The position numbers and the translations under genes were made by a program. A stretch of 32,000 nt of DNA from Trichlorobacter lovleyi SZ (GTDB taxonomy: Bacteria > Desulfobacterota > Desulfuromonadia > Geobacterales > Pseudopelobacteraceae), in assembly GCF_000020385.1 (NCBI RefSeq), contig NC_010814.1, positions 3,480,001 through 3,512,000 of the forward strand, written 5' to 3'. The notes under the pieces were generated by a model, which ran no database searches, had not been told where the DNA came from, and saw only the letters and a program-made list of their open reading frames with translations. Below, piece by piece: positions 1 to 12,288 of this stretch (the stretch's first letter is position 1; each line of letters starts with the position of its first letter).

Positions 1-861
1 CACAAATCCCTCAAAAGTAAGTCCGGTATGATAATCAAGCCCCCGGGTTTCGCCAAGGTCAATTGAAAGGCAATCCTCTACACCGTGCATAGCAAGAATC
101 TGGACGACTTCCGCAATATTTTGCAAGGCCGCTCGCGAACGTACGTTATGCACCACCCTGGCCGCCTCAACAAGAACCTCGCTCCCGCCAAACAGTCGTG
201 TCAATGAAATCAGCTCTTGATGCGAATCTGCCGCTACCGGGTAACGCATTAACAACATCTTCACCGCAGAAACATCTTTTAACGATACCGCCTCACGGAC
301 TAAACGTAACGGCTCACCATGTAGACCAGAAGCAGCGAAGACGCCCTGACAAAAGCCCACTTGTCCCAAGTCGACCTTAAAATCACGCAGCTTGGCAGCC
401 TTCATGACTTCAACCGCCATAGCCACCATCTCGGCATCTGCCTCAGGTGAGTCCAAGCCGATCAGTTCAACACCAGCCTGCATTATTTCACGGTTTCGAC
501 CGCTTTGGAGTTCAGCGTGACGTAGCACCCTCCCTGCATAGCTTATCCTGTACGGCAACAGCTGCCCTTTCATTCGTGTGGCAACTATCCGGGCAATTTG
601 TGGTGTAATGTCAGGCGGTATGGCTAACAATCGCCCCGATTGCCAGTCGTCAAAACGGAAGGTGCGAGAACGTAACCCCTCCCCCATTCCAATGGCAAGC
701 ACATCTTCAAACTCCAAAGCAGGGGGCAAAATCTGTTGAAATCCCCAAGCTGTTGCCACATGCAGTACCTGCTGCTCAAGCTCAGACAAGCGCGCTGCCC
801 GACCAGGCAAGTAATCTGCAACCCCACGGGGCAGCGAAGTATCAATAAACGTTGATTCCAA
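1..861 (-). CDS. hisZ: ATP phosphoribosyltransferase regulatory subunit HisZ (N-terminal part; the 3' end runs off the window)
   Basis: Absent from the ORF track because it is open to the window edge. My minus-strand translation starts at a TTG at 859-861, preceded in frame by TGA. It reads LESTFIDTSLPRGVADYLPGRAARLSELEQQVL...RISYAGRVLRHAELQSGRNREIMQAGVELIG...DLGETRGLDYHTGLTFEGFV. This is the HisS-paralog pattern typical of HisZ (LPxGxxDxLP, GRxRExxQxGxE, YYTG-like end). Confidence 0.8.
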   Translation of the reverse strand, partial: MESTFIDTSLPRGVADYLPGRAARLSELEQQVLHVATAWGFQQILPPALEFEDVLAIGMGEGLRSRTFRFDDWQSGRLLAIPPDITPQIARIVATRMKGQLLPYRISYAGRVLRHAELQSGRNREIMQAGVELIGLDSPEADAEMVAMAVEVMKAAKLRDFKVDLGQVGFCQGVFAASGLHGEPLRLVREAVSLKDVSAVKMLLMRYPVAADSHQELISLTRLFGGSEVLVEAARVVHNVRSRAALQNIAEVVQILAMHGVEDCLSIDLGETRGLDYHTGLTFEGFV

Positions 862-993
862 TCAGTGTTACCTTCTTGATTTTGCTACATCCAGAGATAT
901 TTCCGAGTGCGGATAAGGACGCTGGAGTATGCCATAACCACTTATCTGTGTCAAAACAAAGCCTGCCCTTTTACAGCTCACAACCAAGCAGTT

Positions 994-1039
994 ATCAGCA
1001 TAAAGGCGGCATGGTATTCCATGCCGCCTTTATGCTGAT
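994..1039. terminator. Perfect 21-bp stem / 4-nt loop hairpin, probable bidirectional intrinsic terminator downstream of the 510-aa ORF
   Basis: ATCAGCATAAAGGCGGCATGG (994-1014), loop TATT, then CCATGCCGCCTTTATGCTGAT (1019-1039), an exact reverse complement. The GC-rich core GGCGGCATGG/CCATGCCGCC is flanked by an A-tract and a T-tract that pair with each other. It lies 15 nt past the stop at 1054. Confidence 0.6.
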
Positions 1040-1053
1040 CAAAGCCTTATTTA

Positions 1054-2586
1054 TTATTCTACTTTTTTGATTTGCAAGGCACTCGCACCTTTGTTACGCA
1101 TAAGCACATCTTCCCGCTGGGTTAACTGCAGCAGGAGCAGTTCACTCCTCGCCTCATCAAAAGCAAAATCAGGCATGTAACTCTGGGTGTCTTTTGTACG
1201 CCAGACCTCTTCCAGTGCAGCGCCGTTCCAGTACAAACTGTATACCGCACCACGTTTGTACATGCGGGCATTGCCCAGCACCCAGAAACCATCGTTCTTG
1301 CCCACCAAAACTTCCTGTTTGGAGGTTACCAAGATCCTTTGATTCATAAAGAACCAGCGGTATTTATCAGTGGTTGGATTTATCATTGCATCATCCTCCA
1401 CCTTGTAAAACAGTTCTGAGCCACCAAAAGCATCGCTGCTCCGCCACAATTCTTTCTGCTCTTTATCGTAGACAATCAGATAATTTTCATCATGATAGAC
1501 CACAGTAAGAAGCTCGCCACCGGTATTTTTCAGCTGATTAAAGCTATAAATATTCCCAAAGCGCGGCATTGAAATCTTGGCCTTTTTAACGATCTTTTTC
1601 CCCTCAACCATCACTTCATACACGTCACCATAATAGCGGTCAGCTTTACGTCCCTGCTCCTGGGCATACAGCTTGAGCGGCCCGCCAGCCAGAGCAATGG
1701 CGCGGAAGAAATAAGGAATATCCTCTGCCAGCTTGACCAGCCTGTTATTTTTAAGTTCCCAGATCTGTGAAGCAACTTCACCACCCTTCACAACAGTCAC
1801 AAACAGCTTAAATTGACCATTTGAACTTGCATCCAGATAGTCTATCGCCAGGATTTTGTCATTGGGGCCAAGACTAAAACCGGTTATAGGTCGATTTTCA
1901 CCTTCCCGAATCAGCTGTACGGCACGATCCTGCGCCATGAACAACAATCTTTTGCCATTGGTATCAACACCACCCAAGGCCAAAACATTAAACATCCCGT
2001 CCAGCCGCTTGATCTCTCCCTTATTAGGTGCGCCTCGATAGAAGGCTTGAGGTTTGATAATATCTCCTTGGGGAACCAGCTGTAGATCACCGCCAGGTTT
2101 ATCAACCACGCCGGAACGTAGAATATCCGACGAGCCCGTCTTTGGCGCTATTGCAGTTACAGTCGGAGTAACTGCGATCCTGGCGATAGTACCGGCACCA
2201 AGCTGATTACCAAGGTCGTTGGCTAACTTTTCCGCCAGTTTCGGGATTGCAGAAAATAGCGCCTCTTGTCCCCCCTCACCCTGCACATAGGTGCGGGTAA
2301 CCGTTTGGCCAGCAACTGTTTTAGCTACAGCGTCAATATTATACTGTTTCCCGATGCTAATATAGGTTCCGCTAATCATCACCTCTGCTTCAGCAGCGGT
2401 TGCCACAGCCAGTAACTTGTCGCCACTTAAGCGCGACGCCAGCAACGATTGCAGTACCGCTCTGGTATCATCCTTAGCCTGCGCTCCAACTGCATTAAAC
2501 TCCGCAACATAAATCCGTAACGGGGTCGCAGCAAAGGCGGGAACTGCACAAAGCAGAAGCATTACACACACTATCAAACGTTTCAT
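1054..2586 (-). CDS. Secreted two-domain protein of unknown function: Sec signal peptide, TolB-N/LpoB/CsgG-like small alpha/beta domain, then an FG-GAP/VCBS-like beta-propeller region
   Basis: 510-aa ORF with SD AAGGAGGG 3-4 nt before the ATG. The N-terminus MKRLIVCVMLLLCAVPAFA|ATP looks like a signal peptidase I site. Residues 20-125 (LRIYVAEFNAVG...VMISGTYISIGKQYNIDAVAKTVAG) resemble the small periplasmic activator-type fold. The C-terminal ~330 aa is beta-rich with degenerate repeats. The domain calls come from pattern recognition only. Confidence 0.8.
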   Translation of the reverse strand: MKRLIVCVMLLLCAVPAFAATPLRIYVAEFNAVGAQAKDDTRAVLQSLLASRLSGDKLLAVATAAEAEVMISGTYISIGKQYNIDAVAKTVAGQTVTRTYVQGEGGQEALFSAIPKLAEKLANDLGNQLGAGTIARIAVTPTVTAIAPKTGSSDILRSGVVDKPGGDLQLVPQGDIIKPQAFYRGAPNKGEIKRLDGMFNVLALGGVDTNGKRLLFMAQDRAVQLIREGENRPITGFSLGPNDKILAIDYLDASSNGQFKLFVTVVKGGEVASQIWELKNNRLVKLAEDIPYFFRAIALAGGPLKLYAQEQGRKADRYYGDVYEVMVEGKKIVKKAKISMPRFGNIYSFNQLKNTGGELLTVVYHDENYLIVYDKEQKELWRSSDAFGGSELFYKVEDDAMINPTTDKYRWFFMNQRILVTSKQEVLVGKNDGFWVLGNARMYKRGAVYSLYWNGAALEEVWRTKDTQSYMPDFAFDEARSELLLLQLTQREDVLMRNKGASALQIKKVE

Positions 2587-2673
2587 ATACCCTCCTTAAG
2601 TTACATCACATACGAAACCGGTGGAGAATGCCATATCCCCTGACTGGTGTAAAAGCGATCAGAGCAGCTCCAC

Positions 2674-2760
2674 CTACGCCACCTTTTTCAGAACTCTCTT
2701 CTTTGGCGCGGCATGCAGTTCAACAGTTTCACGGTGGGTACGTAGTTCATCACGGACTTC
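2674..2760 (-). repeat. Copy 1 of an 87-nt near-identical direct repeat (3' end of paralog 1)
   Basis: ctacgccacctttttcagaactctcttctttggcgcggcatgcagttcaacagtttcacggtgggtacgtagttcatcacggacttc. By hand alignment it has about 6 mismatches in 87 nt against copy 3. Confidence 0.85.
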
Positions 2761-3075
2761 ACCAATTTCACCACTAAGCCGCTTTTCAACTGAATCTATC
2801 TTCTGGTTGAGATTTCTTTCAACAGTATCTATCTTTTCGTTGTGATTTTTTTCTACCGAATCAATTCTGTTACCCAGATTTTCCTCTACCCGGTCCACCC
2901 GCATGGACAGCCCCATAACCTTGGCATCGACAAGTTCAATTTTACCCGTCAAACGTTCTTCAACACCTTCAATTTTATGATCAAGTACGCTGAAGCACTC
3001 ATGCACAGCCTTTATTTCAGACCGCATCGCCTCCAGAACCGCCATTAGTTGATTTGTCGTCACCATCTCATTCAC
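2674..3075 (-). CDS. Small coiled-coil protein, paralog 1 of 3 (133 aa, expanded by three 11-residue repeats), unknown family
   Basis: GTG start at 3075, 6 nt after GGAGG in the context gattttGGAGGcaggtcGTG. No signal peptide or TM segment. Residues 1-59 are collinear with the other two paralogs (ECFSV at 26-30, VDAKVMGLS at 49-57). The C-terminus is VRDELRTHRETVELHAAPKKRVLKKVA. Confidence 0.75.
   Translation of the reverse strand: MNEMVTTNQLMAVLEAMRSEIKAVHECFSVLDHKIEGVEERLTGKIELVDAKVMGLSMRVDRVEENLGNRIDSVEKNHNEKIDTVERNLNQKIDSVEKRLSGEIGEVRDELRTHRETVELHAAPKKRVLKKVA
2767..2865 (-). repeat. Three tandem 33-nt units encoding 11-residue (hendecad) repeats, present only in paralog 1
   Basis: Minus-strand translation gives IDSVEKRLSGE for 2767-2799, IDTVERNLNQK for 2800-2832 and IDSVEKNHNEK for 2833-2865. 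The flanking units VDRVEENLGNR and IGEVRDELRTH correspond to the only two units in paralogs 2 and 3. The length difference of 133 vs 100 aa is exactly 33 aa. Confidence 0.85.
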
Positions 3076-3144
3076 GACCTGCCTCCAAAATCTTGCTCTA
3101 TTGCACTATCTCTCAACGCCTCGATAGGTGTCAGAACCCGTTCA

Positions 3145-3231
3145 CTACACCACCTTCTTCAGAACTCTCTTCTTTGGTATCGCATGCAGTTCAACATTTT
3201 CACGGTGGGCACGTAGTTCATCACGGACTTC
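3145..3231 (-). repeat. Copy 2 of the 87-nt direct repeat (3' end of paralog 2)
   Basis: ctacaccaccttcttcagaactctcttctttggtatcgcatgcagttcaacattttcacggtgggcacgtagttcatcacggacttc. By hand alignment it has about 6 mismatches in 87 nt against copy 3. Confidence 0.85.
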
Positions 3232-3435
3232 AACAATTTCCGCGCTCAGATTCTTTACAACAGAATCCACCCGCCTGGACAACCCCATTAACTTTGCATC
3301 AACTATTTCAATCTTCTCAGTAAGTCGCTCCTCAAAACGATCAATCCTGGTGTCAAGTACGCTAAAGCATTCCAGCATTTGCTGAAACTTGTCATTCATA
3401 GTTTCCAGGATCAGGTTTGTATACTCTTTTGTCAC
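3145..3435 (-). CDS. Small coiled-coil protein, paralog 2 of 3 (96 aa from GTG 3435; 102 aa if TTG 3453 is used)
   Basis: gattttGGAGGtggttGTG puts the SD 5 nt before the GTG at 3435. From there the protein (V)TKEYTNLILETMNDKF aligns with paralog 3 (VTKSQLLAVIETMNDKF). The C-terminus is VRDELRAHRENVELHAIPKKRVLKKVV. The track start (TTG 3453) lies only 2 nt after the upstream stop and has no SD. Confidence 0.7.
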   Translation of the reverse strand: MTKEYTNLILETMNDKFQQMLECFSVLDTRIDRFEERLTEKIEIVDAKLMGLSRRVDSVVKNLSAEIVEVRDELRAHRENVELHAIPKKRVLKKVV

Positions 3436-3454
3436 AACCACCTCCAAAATCAAA

Positions 3455-3541
3455 CTACGCCACCTTTTTCAGAACTCTCTTCTTTGGTACCGCATGCAGT
3501 TCAACAGTCTCACGGTGGGCACGTAGTTCATCACGTACTTC
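3455..3541 (-). repeat. Copy 3 of the 87-nt direct repeat (3' end of paralog 3)
   Basis: ctacgccacctttttcagaactctcttctttggtaccgcatgcagttcaacagtctcacggtgggcacgtagttcatcacgtacttc. Confidence 0.85.
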
Positions 3542-3757
3542 AGTAATTTCTGCGCTCAGATGTTTTTCAACAGCATCCATCCGCTTGGATAATCCCATTA
3601 CCTTGGCATCGACAAGCGCAATATCTTCTTTCAATTCTGTTTTCAACTCATAGATTTCTTTTGAATGGACGCTAAAGCACTCAAGAACCTGCTGAAATTT
3701 ATCATTCATGGTTTCGATCACAGCCAGCAACTGACTCTTCGTAACCTCGTCATGCAT
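3455..3757 (-). CDS. Small coiled-coil protein, paralog 3 of 3 (100 aa)
   Basis: ATG at 3757 preceded by GGAGG (ctttGGAGGtgttgacATG). The protein runs MHDEVTKSQLLAVIETMNDKFQQVLECFSV...MDAVEKHLSAEITEVRDELRAHRETVELHAVPKKRVLKKVA. Confidence 0.75.
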   Translation of the reverse strand: MHDEVTKSQLLAVIETMNDKFQQVLECFSVHSKEIYELKTELKEDIALVDAKVMGLSKRMDAVEKHLSAEITEVRDELRAHRETVELHAVPKKRVLKKVA

Positions 3758-3785
3758 GTCAACACCTCCAAAGTTTCTCTAACAC

Positions 3786-3814
3786 ACTATGCCACACTAC
3801 CTAACCTGCCTCAA
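3786..3814 (-). promoter_or_regulatory. Candidate sigma70-type promoter for the small-gene array
   Basis: On the minus strand: TTGAGG (3809-3814), a 17-nt spacer, then CATAGT (3786-3791). It sits directly downstream of the porin terminator and about 30 nt upstream of the paralog 3 ATG. Each hexamer matches consensus at only 4 of 6 positions. Confidence 0.3.
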
Positions 3815-3816
3815 TT

Positions 3817-3847
3817 AAAAAAGGCGGTACCCGTTACCGGTACCGCC
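3817..3847 (-). terminator. Intrinsic terminator of the porin gene
   Basis: GGCGGTACC (3823-3831) pairs with GGTACCGCC (3839-3847) around a 7-nt loop. On the minus strand the hairpin is followed by a T6 run (A-run 3817-3822 on plus). It lies 44 nt past the porin stop. Confidence 0.7.
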
Positions 3848-3890
3848 TCTCATTACTGATTAACTCTCTTCTTACTACTACGTCATCATC

Positions 3891-5372
3891 CTAGAATGTA
3901 TAACGTGCTTGCAGACGCATGGTGTAGGGGTTTTCAGGATCCTTAACAGCAGTAGCAGTGCTATTGGCAGCAGCGCCTTTATAGAAACCGCCCAGAATCA
4001 TATAGCCTGCCTGTGCTTGCAGCTTCAGGTTCTTGTACAGCTGATAGCCAGCCTCAAGGTTGATTTCAGTACCCATGAAGTCACTTGCATTTGCAACGCC
4101 CGTTTTGGCATCTTTATGCTGGTAAGCAGCAAAAGCTGTCAGACCATCCAATTTTGGATTTGAAGCAGGTGCCCAACCAAAACCTACGTTACCATTCAGA
4201 TTGAACTTTTCGGTCAGTTGACCATCATAACCCAGTGTGAGCAGTGCAATGTTGGATACATCACGGCGGATGTACTGATCGGTTGATGTCGGGCTGTTGT
4301 AGGTGTTGCGAGCCAGAATCATCATGCCACCTTCATTATAAGAGTTAACTGAACTCGTGGCCCATCCGTTGTAATGGCTCATGCTGGAGCTATTGTCACC
4401 AGAGGTGAACAGGAAGGCGGTTTTCAGCTTGCCGGGGCCAACCATCATATCAGCAGCAGCGTTTGCTGCCCAGCCATGGAACTGCATACTTGTTGAGGTA
4501 GGCAGGGTTGTAGCAGTCGGATCAGCCTTCATATGGCCGGTCTGCATGGCAGCAAAGCCACTCAGATTCAAACCACCCAGCTTTGTCTGACCACTCAGAG
4601 CCAAAGTATGCAACAGAATTGCCTGCTTCTGGGAATGTGCATTCAGCAGCTTACCATAATAATCGCCGGTGTAGCCAGCTGTGGATGAGGCATAGTCAGC
4701 CAACAGATAATAAGAGAAAACAGCCTTGGTATCCTTGCTGAATGCAAAGGCGTTATCCATCAGGAACAGGTCCTTGTTAGCATCACCGATACGGGAGGGT
4801 GTTGCGGAACCGTTCATGCCACCGTTCTGGCTATCGTCAGCAAGACGGGAGTAGCCAAGAGTCATACTGTAGTTACCAAGAGTAGTAACACCAACAACAG
4901 CCGGTACGTCAGCATCAACCAAGAGGCCCTTGATTGTATCTTTGTAGGGCATCAGACCTGCAAGAGCAGTGAAGTTCTTACCAACGTTGAATTGAAGGTA
5001 GGCATGCTTGACAACAATACCAGCACCTGTAGCGCTATCGCCTGCGCCGTCTGTATCAAGATCACCACCAAGCTTGCTGTTACCAAAGCGCGAGTTAATC
5101 TCAAAATGAGTAACTAACTTGAGGTCATCGCTTGCTTTTGCAATGTACTGAATACGAGTACGCTGCTCAAAGTAGTTGTTCATCTGATTCTTGTCTTTGA
5201 GAGCAGTTGGAGACTTATCTCCGCCAGCAGCACTGTTGTAGTTAGAAAAGATGGTATTGAAGTTAAACAGACCGTGGAATTCATTCTCAAAGGCCATTGC
5301 AGGAAGGGCAGTTACGGCGGTCAGGGCACCGGCTGCAGCGATGGTCAACATTTGCTTTTGAAACTTAGTCAT
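3891..5372 (-). CDS. Outer-membrane beta-barrel porin (Geobacter OmpJ-like major porin)
   Basis: 493 aa with signal peptide MTKFQKQMLTIAAAGALTAVTALPAMA|FENEFHG. The sequence shows alternating beta-strand character, is rich in Gly/Asn/Tyr, and ends ...RLQARYTF with the terminal Phe of the OMP signature. A strong SD, GAAGGAGGAG, precedes the ATG. The OmpJ-like assignment is from memory of the family N-terminus, not from a search. Confidence 0.85.
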   Translation of the reverse strand: MTKFQKQMLTIAAAGALTAVTALPAMAFENEFHGLFNFNTIFSNYNSAAGGDKSPTALKDKNQMNNYFEQRTRIQYIAKASDDLKLVTHFEINSRFGNSKLGGDLDTDGAGDSATGAGIVVKHAYLQFNVGKNFTALAGLMPYKDTIKGLLVDADVPAVVGVTTLGNYSMTLGYSRLADDSQNGGMNGSATPSRIGDANKDLFLMDNAFAFSKDTKAVFSYYLLADYASSTAGYTGDYYGKLLNAHSQKQAILLHTLALSGQTKLGGLNLSGFAAMQTGHMKADPTATTLPTSTSMQFHGWAANAAADMMVGPGKLKTAFLFTSGDNSSSMSHYNGWATSSVNSYNEGGMMILARNTYNSPTSTDQYIRRDVSNIALLTLGYDGQLTEKFNLNGNVGFGWAPASNPKLDGLTAFAAYQHKDAKTGVANASDFMGTEINLEAGYQLYKNLKLQAQAGYMILGGFYKGAAANSTATAVKDPENPYTMRLQARYTF

Positions 5373-5633: not shown

Positions 5634-6038
5634 TTAATGCCCGCTTTGGCACAGCTCTGTAAGCACGCCGTGGCTACTTTTAGGATGCACAAAAGCTATC
5701 TTTGTGCCATGCGCACCGGCACGGGGCAGCTCGTCAATCATCCTCGCTCCCTGCCGTTGCATATCTGCGATGGCTGCCTCAATATCTGCAACCTCGTAGG
5801 CGACATGGTGAATGCCCGGCCCACTCTTCTCCAGGTACTTTGCTATCGGGCTATCCGGACTAGTGGGCTCCAACAATTCAATCTTCGATTCTCCCACCTG
5901 CAGCATTGCAACTTTTACCTTCTGCTCTACAACCTCTTCCGTACCTTTAAACTCCATGCCTAGTGCGTCACGATAAAAAGGTATAGTAGCTTCCAATGAT
6001 TGCACGGCTATGCCGATATGGTTAATTTTCTGCAACAT
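5634..6038 (-). CDS. mce: Methylmalonyl-CoA epimerase (VOC/glyoxalase-fold)
   Basis: 134 aa: MLQKINHIGIAVQSLEATIPFYRDALGMEF...IELLEPTSPDSPIAKYLEKSGPGIHHVAYEVADIEAAI...AFVHPKSSHGVLTELCQ. This is the typical epimerase pattern, and the gene is adjacent to MeaB and the mutase. Confidence 0.85.
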   Translation of the reverse strand: MLQKINHIGIAVQSLEATIPFYRDALGMEFKGTEEVVEQKVKVAMLQVGESKIELLEPTSPDSPIAKYLEKSGPGIHHVAYEVADIEAAIADMQRQGARMIDELPRAGAHGTKIAFVHPKSSHGVLTELCQSGH

Positions 6039-6052
6039 AGCTTAATCCTTTC

Positions 6053-7021
6053 TTACCTTCTAAACACATCTAACAATCTTCGTGAGGCCGCCGAAGGCGT
6101 GGTGACCCCCTGCGCAACCGCATCCTGCACCTGCGGAAAGACCCCCTGCACATCTTTATGATTCAAAAAAAGTGCCTTCAGATCATCCAGCAACAATGCC
6201 CACATCCAGTCTACTGATTGTCGTTTACGATTTTCGTCAAATTCACCAGACTGCCGCATGGCGTCACGAAAGGACTCAAGCATCTCCCAGACCCCCGGTA
6301 TTCCTTCGTTACGCAGGGCACTGACCATCTGAACCGGCACAATCCAGTTTCTGCTTTTGGGACGCAGGATATGCAACGCATTCTGATATTGCTGACGGGC
6401 CAGCTCAGTCTTCTGGCGATCAATGTCTGCCTTATTGATGATAATGGCATCAGCCAGCTCCATAACCCCCTTTTTGATCCCCTGCAGCTCATCACCGGCA
6501 GTTGCCAATTGCAGCAGCATAAAGAAATCCACCATTGAGGCCACCGTAGTTTCAGACTGGCCAACACCGACTGTTTCTACAATAACAACAGTATAACCGG
6601 CTGCCTCACAGAGCAGCATGGTTTCACGGGTACGACGTGCCACACCACCCAACGTATCGCCAGCCGGAGACGGACGGATAAAGGCATTATAGTTACGCGA
6701 AAGTTCCTCCATGCGCGTCTTGTCCCCAAGAATACTGCCACCAGTAATCTGCGAGGAAGGATCAACGGCAAGAACAGCAACCTTATGCCCTTGTTCAGTC
6801 AGGTAGCTGCCAAAAGACTCGATGAAGGTACTCTTGCCCACACCAGGCACGCCGGTAATCCCGATCCGTAAACTGTTTCCAGTATGGGGCAGCAGTAGAT
6901 CAAGTAATTGTGATGCTTTTCGGGCATCTTCTGGCCTTTTGCTTTCAATGAGGGTTATCCCCTTGCCCATGGCACGGATATTACCTTTACGGATGTTATC
7001 GGCGAGTGTGTGAAGTTCCAT
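6053..7021 (-). CDS. meaB: Methylmalonyl-CoA mutase-associated G3E-family GTPase (MeaB/ArgK)
   Basis: 322 aa with P-loop GVPGVGKSTFIE, ETVGVGQSE and NKAD motifs. It lies immediately downstream of the mutase. Confidence 0.9.
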   Translation of the reverse strand: MELHTLADNIRKGNIRAMGKGITLIESKRPEDARKASQLLDLLLPHTGNSLRIGITGVPGVGKSTFIESFGSYLTEQGHKVAVLAVDPSSQITGGSILGDKTRMEELSRNYNAFIRPSPAGDTLGGVARRTRETMLLCEAAGYTVVIVETVGVGQSETTVASMVDFFMLLQLATAGDELQGIKKGVMELADAIIINKADIDRQKTELARQQYQNALHILRPKSRNWIVPVQMVSALRNEGIPGVWEMLESFRDAMRQSGEFDENRKRQSVDWMWALLLDDLKALFLNHKDVQGVFPQVQDAVAQGVTTPSAASRRLLDVFRR

Positions 7022-9345: not shown

Positions 9346-12243
9346 CTACAGCACCGCCTTCAGGTAGGTGGTGGTGCGCTCACGTTTCTCTTTTTCTATC
9401 AGGGCTGGATCTACCTCAACAAACTTCTCATCAGGGGTTATCTTGAATAGTGGTTGCCCCTTCTGAACGATGGTACCATCACCACCTTCCATGATGATTT
9501 TATCCAGAGTACCGGCAAACGGCGCCCGGATGGTATTGAACATCTTCATTACTTCAATGATGTACAGCGGCTGATCCTTTTCAAAGTGCATCCCCTCGCT
9601 CACAAAGGGTGGCAGTCCCGGTGCTTCCTGACCATAGTACATACCGCCGCAGACCGCAACAATCTCATCAGCTTTTGTTGTTGGGGGTGGTACCAGAATC
9701 TTCTTCATCCGGGCCTGCAGATCCAGGTCTGTCAGATAATCAGGAATCACTACTTCCAGATCGTCCAGCACCTTCATATCCCAGAATTTGGTATTCTCGC
9801 CAATCAGGAACAGCATACCCAGCATCTCAAGGCCAACCTCAAAACCATAGTGGGCTGAACGGATCTGGTCCCACATCTCCTGATCAAAACCACCTTGCGG
9901 CTTGTCTTTGTGCAGGATCTCGTTCAGCTTGTCATACTCATCCTTATGCAGACCGAAGTGTTCACGAATCTTCCGTGAAAAATCAAGTCCCTGCTTCAAC
10001 AGCTCCTGGTCATGATCCCAGATGATCTCAGCGGCTGGTTTGTGGGGACGGAAGTCCATATGGAGGTACTCGTAGGTATCCCGCAGGACTCCCAGCGGAT
10101 TGCGCAGCCAGATTACCTTGCCTTTTTCAATCTTGAAGTTCTTGGTATTGATGGACAGCCAGCCGGACAACAGATGGGGATCATCCAGAAGTCTTTCCAT
10201 CGGGCGAGTGATCAACGTGCCTTTACGATCCAGCAGGGCTGACATGTTCTTCAGCTCTTTAGCCAATACATCCGGCTGATCACCAAACTGTTCGGTTACC
10301 AGCTTGGCGTAATGTTTCTTCATCTGGAAGAAGGCATAGACCACATCCAGCTTGTTGGCCTCTTCCTTCAGAGTCCCCACCAGGGTTAGATACGGCACCA
10401 CAAAACGGGTGGTTGGCTTGGCCATAACATTGCGGCCCAGGAACCAGTTGACCAGACCATAGTGAAACTCAAGGTTGGTTGCCAGCGAACTACCCCGCAG
10501 GGTCGTGCTGCGCAACACCTCGGACAGACGCTCATAGCTGCAGAGACGATCCTCACCCTTGGTCAGCAGCAGGGCGATGTTGGAATCGTAGGCACCAGCC
10601 ACCTTATACTTCATGAACTGATTGGTATCGGGGTTCAGCATGCTGATCCCCTGATCATCCCGCACCTCACCCTTGATCGGCTTGGACCAGTAACGGATCA
10701 TGCCACCGGCATGGGGAGAAAGAGAGGCATCAGTGGCGTTGAGGCGGGCCTCAACCGAGGCATTGAAACGCACAACCCGCTCCGGCTTGGGCAGCCGCTG
10801 CTTGTGCTGTGCCAGCAGGGCCATTGCCTCAACAAGGGACTCAACTATGAAGAAGTCATTCTTATCCTTGGGATTGGTGAACTTCAGGGAGTAGCAGAGC
10901 TCGGTTACCCGGTGCTCCACCTGGATCCGGGTGTTGACCTCCATGAAGTAGTGGCGGTCACGATCCACAATGCATTCAAAGGTGGAGGCAGAGTCCAGAC
11001 CAACGGCCTGACCAAAGCGGGCCGACTCCTCTTCCATCCGCTGCAGTACCTTCAGATCAGACTCAAGCGCGGCAACCTCGTCTTTTTTCTTTTCTGCCTT
11101 AGCCTTGGCAATAGCGGCCTGCAGTCCTTCCTGAGTGACCGAAACCTCCAACAGCTTCTGCTCATGCATCTGCAGAGAACAGTCACGGCCACCAAGCGAG
11201 ATGCACCAGTCACCGTTACCCAGCAACTGGATCTCGTTATGGCGGGTCTGCTCGATGTTCAGTTCAATCAGGACGTTCTTGTTGTCCCCTACGCCGTTGG
11301 CCTTAACCTCCTGCAAAACCTCACGCACCATGGCAGGGGCCTCGGCAGCAGCCTTGGCAATCGCCTTTTCATCAGCATTCTTGGTCCCCAGCAGAGAGGC
11401 GCCCAGAATCCGCTGTCCCTTACCACCACCGCCACCAATCGCCTTGAGACGGAAACGGCTTTGGGGATACTTGCGAAACAGTTCGGCTACTTCTTCCTGC
11501 ACCTGGGCGCAGAGTTCTTCGATGGAATAGAGATCAATCCCCTTGGCATAGGAGGTCATCAGGATATGATCAGCCAGGGCCTCGAGCGACAAGCTGGTGT
11601 CTTTCAGGATTTTGGCATCACACTCCAGTCCCTCAGCCTTGACCAGCGCCAGCAGTTTTTCACGACTGTCATGCTTCTTGACCAGGGTACGGGCTGTGAC
11701 GTTATCCACACCCGGGGTAACAGAGACGTTCACCAGCAGGGCGGTCCGCTTGGCTTCATCCTTTTTACCGGCCCGGGCCTGGGTGGCAGCACAGGGACCG
11801 ATAAACTTGAGACCGGCCTTTTCAATGGCTGCCACAAACTCTTCGTCTTCAGCCATGAAGCCATAGCCGGCAAAGATAGAGTCGTACCCATTATCCTTGG
11901 CAATGCCGATGATCTGGTTGATCCGCTCGACGCGCTCTTCCTTGCTGGCACCAGAGTAATCAGGCACCCGGTGAACCCGGTTGGAATCGGTCAACTGACG
12001 CAATTCTGGTGCCAGGGCATTGGGATAGACAATGGAGTCTTTTTCAGAGAGCAGGATGCCGTAGTGGCTGATCCCCATCTCCTGATAGACATCCATGGCT
12101 TCCTTGCGGATCGGACCACGGCAGACAATCAGCGGCTTCAGGTCTTCGCAGGAAAAGGAACGGACCCACTCGGATGAAGACTTGCTCAATCGGCGATCCC
12201 GGTGAATCAAGGGGTTGTGCTTATAGTAATCGGTCTGAGGCAT
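9346..12243 (-). CDS. Biotin-dependent carboxylase alpha subunit: divergent biotin carboxylase (ATP-grasp), ~300-aa linker domain and C-terminal biotinyl carrier domain
   Basis: The start is moved to the ATG at 12243, which has GGAGAT 8 nt upstream; the track uses the TTG at 12264. BC motifs are present: GGGGKGQRIL, GRDCSLQMHEQK, MEVNTRIQVEH. The biotinylation motif EVMKM lies about 35 aa from the C-terminus. Confidence 0.85.
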   Translation of the reverse strand: MPQTDYYKHNPLIHRDRRLSKSSSEWVRSFSCEDLKPLIVCRGPIRKEAMDVYQEMGISHYGILLSEKDSIVYPNALAPELRQLTDSNRVHRVPDYSGASKEERVERINQIIGIAKDNGYDSIFAGYGFMAEDEEFVAAIEKAGLKFIGPCAATQARAGKKDEAKRTALLVNVSVTPGVDNVTARTLVKKHDSREKLLALVKAEGLECDAKILKDTSLSLEALADHILMTSYAKGIDLYSIEELCAQVQEEVAELFRKYPQSRFRLKAIGGGGGKGQRILGASLLGTKNADEKAIAKAAAEAPAMVREVLQEVKANGVGDNKNVLIELNIEQTRHNEIQLLGNGDWCISLGGRDCSLQMHEQKLLEVSVTQEGLQAAIAKAKAEKKKDEVAALESDLKVLQRMEEESARFGQAVGLDSASTFECIVDRDRHYFMEVNTRIQVEHRVTELCYSLKFTNPKDKNDFFIVESLVEAMALLAQHKQRLPKPERVVRFNASVEARLNATDASLSPHAGGMIRYWSKPIKGEVRDDQGISMLNPDTNQFMKYKVAGAYDSNIALLLTKGEDRLCSYERLSEVLRSTTLRGSSLATNLEFHYGLVNWFLGRNVMAKPTTRFVVPYLTLVGTLKEEANKLDVVYAFFQMKKHYAKLVTEQFGDQPDVLAKELKNMSALLDRKGTLITRPMERLLDDPHLLSGWLSINTKNFKIEKGKVIWLRNPLGVLRDTYEYLHMDFRPHKPAAEIIWDHDQELLKQGLDFSRKIREHFGLHKDEYDKLNEILHKDKPQGGFDQEMWDQIRSAHYGFEVGLEMLGMLFLIGENTKFWDMKVLDDLEVVIPDYLTDLDLQARMKKILVPPPTTKADEIVAVCGGMYYGQEAPGLPPFVSEGMHFEKDQPLYIIEVMKMFNTIRAPFAGTLDKIIMEGGDGTIVQKGQPLFKITPDEKFVEVDPALIEKEKRERTTTYLKAVL

Positions 12244-12288
12244 GGGCTTATATCTCCAATTCAAATCAATAAGTTAAGTAATGACAGA

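Follow-up and report, generated by a model that had tools for sequence, protein, structure and literature searches.

A 32,000-nucleotide stretch of the Trichlorobacter (formerly Geobacter) lovleyi SZ chromosome (contig NC_010814.1, positions 3,480,001 to 3,512,000; the window, in what follows, is this whole stretch) carries at positions 2674-3757 an array of three small paralogous genes, which we named kidC, kidB and kidA in this analysis. On the basis of structural modelling, and with our confidence evenly balanced, we propose that the Kid proteins would be self-associating coiled-coil rods of variable length, located in the cytoplasm and encoded by accessory genes that duplicate and undergo gene conversion.

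The three genes and their repeat units

Open reading frame (ORF) calling places the genes head to tail on the minus strand, in the order kidC, kidB, kidA:

3455..3757, minus strand: kidC, ATG start, 100 amino acids (aa), no extra KID repeats; exact match to ACD96962.1, WP_012471286.1 and UniProt B3EAS9.
3145..3435, minus strand: kidB, 96 aa from GTG 3435; the ORF 3145..3453 reaches up to TTG 3453.
2674..3075, minus strand: kidA, GTG 3075, 133 aa; three extra 11-residue KID repeats.
2784..2862, minus strand: 33-nt tandem repeat within kidA, 2.4 copies, encoding xIDxVExNLNx hendecads, i.e. the 11-residue protein repeat.

The three proteins are 63-66% identical to each other in pairwise alignment, with values of 63-65% against kidA, and the triplicated unit is also visible in the DNA (DNA repeat families D1-D3 and DNA alignment). 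ORFs and alignments thus agree with an initial annotation made from the sequence alone, which had described head-to-tail minus-strand paralogues of 133, ~96 and 100 aa, each with its own GGAGG Shine-Dalgarno motif and with several shared blocks. The motif lies 5-7 nt 5' of every start (3769..3765 for kidC, 3445..3441 for kidB and 3086..3082 for kidA), and the blocks ECFSV, VDAK.MGLS.R and EVRDELR.HRE.VELHA.PKKRVLKKV are invariant across the three proteins.

The spacing between kidC and kidB is 19 nt. The most likely kidB start is GTG 3435, because the orthologues begin with MTKEYT and the GGAGG lies 5 nt upstream of this codon. For kidA, an alternative start at ATG 3066 would give 130 aa and is the start annotated in another T. 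lovleyi strain. We infer the locus tags Glov_3256 (kidC), Glov_3255 (kidB) and Glov_3254 (kidA) because the nearby methylmalonyl-CoA mutase, B3EAT3, is Glov_3260. Judged from alignment gaps, the number of central repeats differs among homologues, paralogues, strains and species, from 0 to about 5; kidB of another T. lovleyi strain, for instance, has one more 11-residue repeat than its counterpart in the window.

Predicted structure of the Kid proteins

An AlphaFold2 model of kidC, built from a 47-sequence alignment, is one uninterrupted helix spanning residues 7-85 with a mean predicted local distance difference test score (pLDDT) of 90, the last 15 residues being of low confidence. The hydrophobic periodicity of the Kid proteins, 3.56-3.61 residues, stands 3-9 standard deviations above shuffled controls, and this value fits a mix of heptads and hendecads that would lay a nearly straight hydrophobic seam along the helix. 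Both results support the earlier prediction that the proteins are all-helical.

When the sequence is read in register, degenerate K-I-D-x-V-E-x-x-L-x-x units account for the whole protein; positions a, d and h make up the core, and each of them is followed by an acidic residue. The hydrophobic stripe takes up 3 of 11 residues (a, d, h), corresponding to ~65 degrees of the helix surface. In the terminal KID unit, H81-R82-E-T-V85-E86-L-H88, the a-position Ile is replaced by Arg and His stands at the flanking positions, forming a C-terminal cap, H81-R82-x3-E86-x-H88, that is followed by a flexible basic tail of 10 residues, PKKRVLKKVA (residue numbers for E15, E26, V74, L78, H81, R82, E86 and H88 are those of kidC throughout). 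The tail has a net charge of +5, in proteins with ~36% charged residues and a pI of 6.0-6.7.

The highest 19-residue Kyte-Doolittle mean reaches 0.55-0.66 in the Kid proteins versus 2.16 in a Bdr protein of Borrelia. A stop codon is located ~7 codons upstream of the kidC start and therefore leaves no space for a signal peptide. The initial annotation had listed the absence of a transmembrane (TM) segment, of a signal peptide and of a nucleotide-binding motif, together with a strongly basic tail, and our results agree with it on all these points. Comparison of the kidC model with known structures by Foldseek gave no matches, a lone helix being uninformative in this kind of search.

Coding status of the array

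Nei-Gojobori counts over the N-terminal parts of the window paralogues gave a proportion of nonsynonymous differences (pN) of 0.27-0.30 versus a proportion of synonymous differences (pS) of 0.63-0.71, and pN is lower than pS in nearly all pairs, including those with ten other family genes. In a second T. lovleyi strain the region is conserved at 86% DNA identity with all three genes intact (100, 107 and 130 aa), and the length differences between the two strains are whole codons; the frame disruption in close relatives that the initial annotation had suggested looking for is absent there. Close homologues form 61 clusters. Because pN is below pS, the orthologues are intact and these homologues exist, the kid ORFs are real protein-coding genes under purifying selection, and not chance ORFs.

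As for a non-coding explanation, the window holds no Rfam family and no tRNA. The plus-strand ORFs that overlie the array (e.g. 2621..2845 and 3128..3385) were rejected as genes, being mirror artefacts of the repeats. No mention of Glov_3253-3257 or of their accession numbers was found in the literature.

Insertion, duplication and gene conversion

The array sits between the terminator of a gene for an OmpJ-like porin and the promoter of a gene for a 510-aa TolB-like protein. This order of porin, one to three kid copies and TolB-like gene recurs in all seven genome loci (L001-L007) and in two additional ones, L105, which comes from the other T. lovleyi strain, and L106; some loci contain further kid copies after the 510-aa gene. 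Upstream of this arrangement, L003, L007 and L105 have mcm, meaB and an epimerase gene. Trichlorobacter thiogenes presents mcm, meaB, epimerase, porin, 510-aa gene, hisZ and purA in the same order with no kid gene, the gap from the porin to the 510-aa gene being 158 bp, and the 510-aa protein family is much wider than the kid family. Because the gene order is kept without kid in T. thiogenes and the neighbouring family is so much wider, the array is a lineage-specific accessory insertion in one Trichlorobacter lineage, followed by local duplication. Its surroundings in the window are core chromosome (topA, dprA, trmFO, mcm).

The 3' ends of the three genes follow a different pattern from the rest, and the segments in question are:

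2674..2760, minus strand: converted 3' segment of kidA, last 28 codons and stop, EVRDELRTHRETVELHAAPKKRVLKKVA.
3145..3231, minus strand: equivalent segment of kidB, from DNA alignment.
3455..3541, minus strand: equivalent segment of kidC, from DNA alignment.

Over the last 28 codons, pS among the window paralogues is 0.13-0.19 versus 0.57-0.89 (saturated) to other genomes. Because pS is low within the genome and high to other genomes, the C-terminal near-identity stems largely from within-genome gene conversion acting on moderate constraint, which keeps the 3' ~90 nt of the array copies alike. In L002, two kid copies that are parted by the 510-aa gene show no homogenisation. The initial annotation had spoken of an almost invariant C-terminal module: the module is indeed near-identical in the paralogues, but in large part through conversion and not through exceptional constraint. 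Throughout the close family, the conserved portion of this module is limited to H-R-x3-E-x-H and the basic tail.

A further small-gene insertion in the same operon region is also polymorphic. The other T. lovleyi strain has a small PDDEXK_3 gene (GxxExxY-type; L105:1233-1640) separating meaB from the epimerase gene, whereas in the window just ~15 nt (~6038-6053) stand between them and the PDDEXK_3 gene is missing.

Relatives of the Kid proteins

The protein encoded by kidA matches the Pfam KID repeat, PF02524, in 3 stretches with 46.6 bits (E = 8e-13; gathering threshold 20.8 bits), while kidB and kidC have no significant Pfam match and both fall under the PF02524 threshold. UniProt calls kidC (B3EAS9) "Kid repeat protein". 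Among the wider family described below, 12 of 37 members exceed the PF02524 threshold. In tblastn searches kidA matches Bdr genes on 466 plasmids, almost all from Borrelia/Borreliella (~1e-13, 40-47% identity), and its pairwise alignment with one Bdr protein has 42% identity over 111 aa (E = 4e-21). These BLASTP alignments span the repeat region alone, and kidC has no match in the plasmid or phage collections, Borrelia plasmids included.

Searches of Pfam, NCBIfam, PADLOC, PHROGs and PDB sequences with the three proteins and with family profiles returned the KID repeat and coiled-coil noise only. The best PADLOC and PHROG matches (E ~1e-4) fall on the coiled coils of ZorA, LeoA and tail fibres, and the Kid proteins do not belong to these families. 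No Pfam, NCBIfam, PHROG, PADLOC or PDB entry covers the N-terminal block or the H-R-x3-E-x-H cap. The initial annotation's failure to place the genes in any family therefore needs dividing: kidA passes PF02524 and UniProt names kidC, but the end modules are in no curated family, and kidB and kidC go unmatched. The loose likeness to XhlA and DUF1640 that it had noted was not upheld, XhlA (PF10779) scoring 10.4 bits versus a cutoff of 34.7 and DUF1640 (PF07798) giving no hit at E <= 10.

The close family, recognised by its PKKRxLKKVA tail, is narrow: all 61 clusters come from Trichlorobacter/Geobacter-type sources, and with one genome per species it is present in only 7 species, all of them "Geobacter sp." metagenome-assembled genomes. 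An exhaustive search with a family profile reaches much further: it finds 987 representatives at E <= 1e-3, of which 102 reach E <= 1e-10, and the wider family amounts to ~1000 clusters at 50% identity, mostly from Desulfobacterota-type metagenomes. No informative names occur among these proteins. The best matches are mostly small (about 60-190 aa) and have one common plan, with an N-terminus M-x-K-D-H-L-E-I-L-L-E-D...K-F-D-L-V-L-E-G-H, a variable run of KID repeats, and a C-terminus K-I-D-A-V-A-A-D-L-x-A-H-R-A-D-T-E-A-H-x3-Y-R-V-x-E.

Three residues, E26, H81 and H88, do not vary in 37 divergent members, and E15, V74, L78, R82 and E86 are nearly invariant; no basic tail is seen in the wider family. 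We define here an 'E..E / H-R-x3-E-x-H' small-rod family, with examined members of roughly 95-190 aa that combine an N-terminal block containing E15 and E26, KID-type hendecads and the C-terminal cap; all of its invariant residues are carried by each of the three window proteins. The one Cys and two His that the initial annotation had listed as invariant are so in the three paralogues; family-wide, the His residues remain invariant but the Cys is not conserved. N-terminal types and middle segments are re-assorted among the homologues, a pattern of recombination seen in the alignment. In the kid homologue at L001:9139-9570, units of 7/14 residues (AEVKADIAELKSDM, repeated), and not KID hendecads, are expanded just before the H-R cap; repeats of more than one type can therefore lengthen the rod.

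Genomic context of distant relatives

We surveyed the surroundings of the wider family in 79 metagenome loci plus the earlier ones, counting gene content on the 48 loci of at least 3 kb. The distant members stand alone, in the orientation of the genes around them (50 of 64 upstream neighbours and 50 of 59 downstream neighbours share their strand), and no conserved partner gene was found at the examined loci. They sit in arrays with many toxin-antitoxin genes, within polysaccharide loci. Polysaccharide genes (NAD-dependent epimerase/dehydratase, DegT, Bac_transf, GFO/IDH/MocA, Wza, Wzz, YjbH) occur at 29 of the 48 loci, and small cassette-type genes (DUF433/DUF5615, PIN, HEPN/NTase, ParE-like, 23S_rRNA_IVP, DUF7718), often in long co-directional arrays, at 27. 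No relatives of the family were found in 2.9 million viral contigs (IMG/VR) or in GenBank phages. Because its members are solitary, have no conserved partner and have no viral relatives, the wider family resembles in its behaviour a set of small, autonomous accessory genes that settle between conserved ones, and not the parts of a fixed pathway. A phage or plasmid origin was rejected on the grounds that viral relatives are missing and that the plasmid matches are Bdr repeats, obtained with kidA only.

Several arrays with kid-like genes (L046, L050, L056-L058, L077 and others) contain a conserved element of ~60 nt before many small co-directional genes, for example at L046:700-770 and L056:6578-6650. 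The consensus reads TTTTTTATC.CCTTACGCCTCACGGTAAGAAATGAGAAGTGAAAGAATTAAACAACGTCCCCCAAAA and stops at a sharply defined 3' boundary, ending in GTCCCCCAAAA. We counted 47 copies of the core GTCCCC[CA]AAA, all of them on the gene strand, versus ~1.6 expected. The element matches no Rfam family and is absent from the window and from the Trichlorobacter loci; it could be a promoter or leader, or a cassette boundary or recombination site. The same small-gene arrays also hold group II introns (Rfam RF02005, RF02003 and RF00029; L056:14168-14820 and L050:7913-8008), reminiscent of the group II introns that target cassette arrays.

Proposed mechanism and alternatives

Because an isolated 80-residue helix whose hydrophobic stripe is so narrow could not be stable by itself, the Kid helices would have to oligomerise. 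Mechanistically, we propose that they assemble in the cytoplasm as homo-oligomers, giving nearly straight coiled-coil rods with a length that would be set by the number of central repeats. The N-terminal Glu residues (E15, E26) and the C-terminal His/Arg cap suggest either antiparallel packing or a specific end-binding site. By resemblance only, the basic tail may anchor the rod at an anionic surface, such as inner-membrane lipids or nucleic acid; alternatively, and again as a likeness, it may be a degron similar to ClpXP C-motif-2 that would make the proteins unstable. YbaQ RAKKVA and MuA RRKKAI are listed as degrons of this protease (PMC9775585, Table 2). In a more ambitious version, which we regard as unlikely, the array would be the domesticated tip of a widespread, mobile family of single-helix rods whose invariant end residues build an end-to-end or cofactor site in antiparallel bundles, and which travels like a cassette in polysaccharide-locus arrays rich in toxin-antitoxin (TA) genes, with a defined role in the envelope, in polysaccharide biology or in conflict.

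Some points weigh against the proposal of cytoplasmic rods from accessory genes. A shallow G. lovleyi proteome (87 proteins) does not include Glov_3253-3257, although the neighbouring porin is missing from it too. The array's own promoter, of a conserved sigma-70 type with an extended -10 element, is predicted from sequence only. The synteny with the porin and the TolB-like gene at every genome locus recovered could reflect a functional link and not mere parking; the H-R-x3-E-x-H cap might instead bind a metal or a cofactor; and the degron and membrane-tether readings of the tail stay at the level of analogy.

The functional link just mentioned would make the Kid proteins dedicated partners of the OmpJ-like porin and the TolB-like periplasmic protein, for example cytoplasmic chaperones, regulators or length-setting scaffolds for an envelope complex. 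Strict synteny over the nine loci (the seven genome loci, L105 and L106), a kid promoter that resembles that of the TolB-like gene, and the enrichment of the wider family beside envelope and polysaccharide genes (29 of 48 loci) all speak for it. However, the porin and the TolB-like gene occur with no kid gene in T. thiogenes and in many Desulfuromonadales; the close family occupies a single narrow clade, in which vertical descent alone predicts synteny; both neighbours are exported while the Kid proteins have no export signal; and the distant relatives have no conserved partner. We consider this partnership unlikely. Rather improbable, in our judgement, is the idea of short-lived regulators or of factors associated with TA or defence systems, in which ...LKKVA would serve as a ClpXP degron and the wider family would reside in TA/defence cassette arrays. 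The tail does match the C-motif-2 examples, distant relatives are found among PIN, HEPN/NTase, ParE-like and DUF433/DUF5615 genes, and kid copy number and position vary; yet the adjacent partner gene is not conserved, PADLOC gives noise only, the wider family has no basic tail, and all 10 tail residues are conserved, beyond what a degron needs.

Amphipathic helices of the apolipoprotein, phasin or late embryogenesis abundant (LEA) kind, coating a membrane or granule or protecting against stress, would account for the 11-mer repeats, and the Pfam Apolipoprotein profile matches 25 of 37 family members (best E = 1e-10), with apolipoprotein A-IV as top PDB sequence match (E = 6e-8) and weak matches to phasin and PhaR. 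These scores lie far under the curated cutoffs (PF01442, Apolipoprotein A1/A4/E, gives kidA 29.3 bits with a cutoff of 90, and the wider-family matches are all sub-threshold), the 3/11 stripe is typical of coiled-coil cores and not of wide lipid-binding faces, and polyhydroxyalkanoate (PHA) genes are absent nearby, so that we allow it only a small chance. A slim chance goes to a metal or haem site, formed by the invariant Glu, His and Arg residues at the ends of an antiparallel bundle and used for storage, sensing or redox. The residues concerned are those conserved over the 37 divergent members (E26, H81 and H88 throughout, E15, R82 and E86 nearly), H81 and H88 are 7 residues apart and would fall on one helix face, and antiparallel pairing would put the N-terminal Glu beside the C-terminal His at any repeat number. 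Nevertheless, Pfam, NCBIfam and PDB sequence searches found no likeness to known metalloprotein motifs, H88 is just past the confidently predicted helix, and metal or cofactor genes are not consistently nearby. Largely refuted, and left with a very remote chance, is the view of Kid as phage-derived, membrane-associated proteins of the Bdr/XhlA type acting in lysis or envelope perturbation. The 42% identity between kidA and Bdr over 111 aa (E = 4e-21), the position of bdr just after the holin genes blyA-blyB on cp32, and the alignment of the basic Kid tail at the start of the Bdr TM helix would favour it; but the likeness is in the repeats only and kidC, which has no extra repeats, is unmatched in plasmid and phage collections, the hydrophobic anchor is absent, the relatives are missing from the 2.9 million viral contigs, PHROG and XhlA scores are coiled-coil noise, and the window is core chromosome.

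Transcription signals and flanking genes

The signals and neighbours around the array are the following:

3813..3851, minus strand: intrinsic terminator of the porin gene, 13-bp GC-rich hairpin and U-run, fold z-score -4.4.
3786..3814, minus strand: predicted kidC promoter, -35 TTGAGG 3814..3809, 17-nt spacer, TG-extended -10 CATAGT 3791..3786, read from sequence.
3105..3134, minus strand: promoter-like site before kidA, CTGACA, 18 nt, GATAGT.
2625..2653, minus strand: predicted promoter of the 510-aa gene, TTTACA, 17 nt, CATTCT.
3891..5372, minus strand: OmpJ-like outer-membrane porin, 493 aa; ACD96963.1, B3EAT0, "LamB porin family protein, putative".
1054..2586, minus strand: secreted TolB-like protein gene, 510 aa, annotated "VCBS repeat-containing protein".

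The terminator, which has an equivalent in all relatives, parts the kid array from ompJ-like transcription. Directly after it, L001-L006 carry a TTGAGG-like -35 element (TTGAGC/TTGAGA in two loci), a spacer of 16-18 nt and a TGGCATAGT-like -10 element; in the window the kidC promoter scores 8/12, under the scan threshold used. The kidA 5' leader is related to the kidC leader in alignments. In the relatives the promoter of the 510-aa gene reads TTGACA, 17 nt, (TGG)CATACT and is similar to the kid promoter. A sigma-54 reading of the conserved TGGCA was rejected, given that the -12 region is not conserved between loci.

In the kid-bearing relatives (L001-L006) the 510-aa gene promoter (TTGACA, 17 nt, TGGCATACT) lies within a hairpin and U-run (GCCGGGGGA...TCCTCCGGCTTTT), terminator-like for the kid transcript. 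This hairpin is absent in the kid-less T. thiogenes and degenerate in the window (2600..2675, fold z-score -0.7).

The porin has no Pfam match and scores 61 bits (E = 8e-17) with NCBIfam DESULF_POR1, under the cutoff of 250. Published peptides of G. sulfurreducens OmpJ (GSU3304) were compared with it at the peptide level only: 3 of 8 align with z > 6, the 8 best matches fall at distinct sites over porin residues 86-482, and the annotation name is the same. The 510-aa gene, which in Trichlorobacter invariably accompanies the OmpJ-like porin gene, encodes a protein with no Pfam or NCBIfam match, whose AlphaFold2 model joins an alpha/beta domain at the N-terminus to a beta-propeller through a disordered linker (residues 140-189). 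Its top full-length PDB matches in Foldseek are TolB (7mx5, 6pnv; E = 3e-9), but with low TM-scores of 0.26-0.33.

Region 1..1053 is not empty, as it holds the 5' part of hisZ running off the window. Elsewhere in the window, 9346..12264 on the minus strand encodes a 972-aa fusion of biotin carboxylase and biotinyl carrier, with Pfam domains matched in short fragments only; the 571-aa ORF antisense to it (10462..12177, plus strand) is probably a compositional artefact.

Significance

At present the Kid proteins are an ordinary conserved hypothetical family with a well-described anatomy, and the evidence points to no unusual mechanism. The analysis delimits an unannotated family by its N-terminal Glu block and H-R-x3-E-x-H cap, of which Pfam captures the KID repeats only, and it links the enigmatic Bdr repeat of Borrelia to free-living anaerobes. 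The array also illustrates neatly, on a small scale, how tandem duplication, partial gene conversion and variation in repeat number, i.e. in rod length, act together. If the rods acted on the OmpJ-like porin and the TolB-like protein, they would bear on Geobacter envelope biology, since OmpJ is needed for Fe(III) and Mn(IV) reduction in G. sulfurreducens (PMC1186022); a role of the wider family in polysaccharide loci or TA-rich islands would matter likewise.

Comparison with known systems

Among short coiled-coil proteins, XhlA and DUF1640/CCDC90 share a hendecad-like periodicity with the Kid proteins, as a resemblance only, and differ in their C-terminal TM helix. HSBP1 (PF06825) and baculovirus P10 (PF05531) are closer in architecture, being single continuous helices of ~75-100 aa that need oligomerisation. 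The C-terminal tail of P10 is also basic. However, their Pfam scores are sub-threshold and their taxa and biology unrelated, which makes this an analogy of architecture and not homology. The tail ends ...LKKVA / ...LKKVV show the basic-basic-hydrophobic-small pattern of ClpXP C-motif-2, again a resemblance, while the conserved basic stretch is longer (10 residues) and is missing in the wider family.

In their genomic behaviour, the kid-like genes recall 'hitch-hiker' genes (23S_rRNA_IVP four-helix bundles, PDDEXK_3/GxxExxY and TA modules), which are likewise small, solitary, co-directional insertions among conserved genes and patchy between close relatives; the folds and sequences of these genes are unrelated to Kid, and their function is also mostly unknown.

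Bdr differs from Kid in having its own conserved N-terminal domain, which does not resemble the N-terminal sequences of Kid, and in ending with a hydrophobic membrane anchor, as read from the sequences. It also has neither the H-R-x3-E-x-H cap nor the basic tail, and its genes are located on Borrelia plasmids and prophages (cp32, beside blyAB), whereas the kid genes are chromosomal. By N-terminal domain, membrane anchor and plasmid or prophage location, the Kid proteins are not members of the Bdr family, whose function is unknown (PMC3303823). Nevertheless, Bdr and kidA have in common the 11-residue K-I-D-x-V-E-x-x-L repeat, and Bdr, like the kid genes, is a multi-copy paralogous family with repeat-number polymorphism between strains. 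Kid is thus a KID-repeat coiled-coil kind that does without the Bdr N-terminal domain and anchor and adds new conserved end modules of its own.

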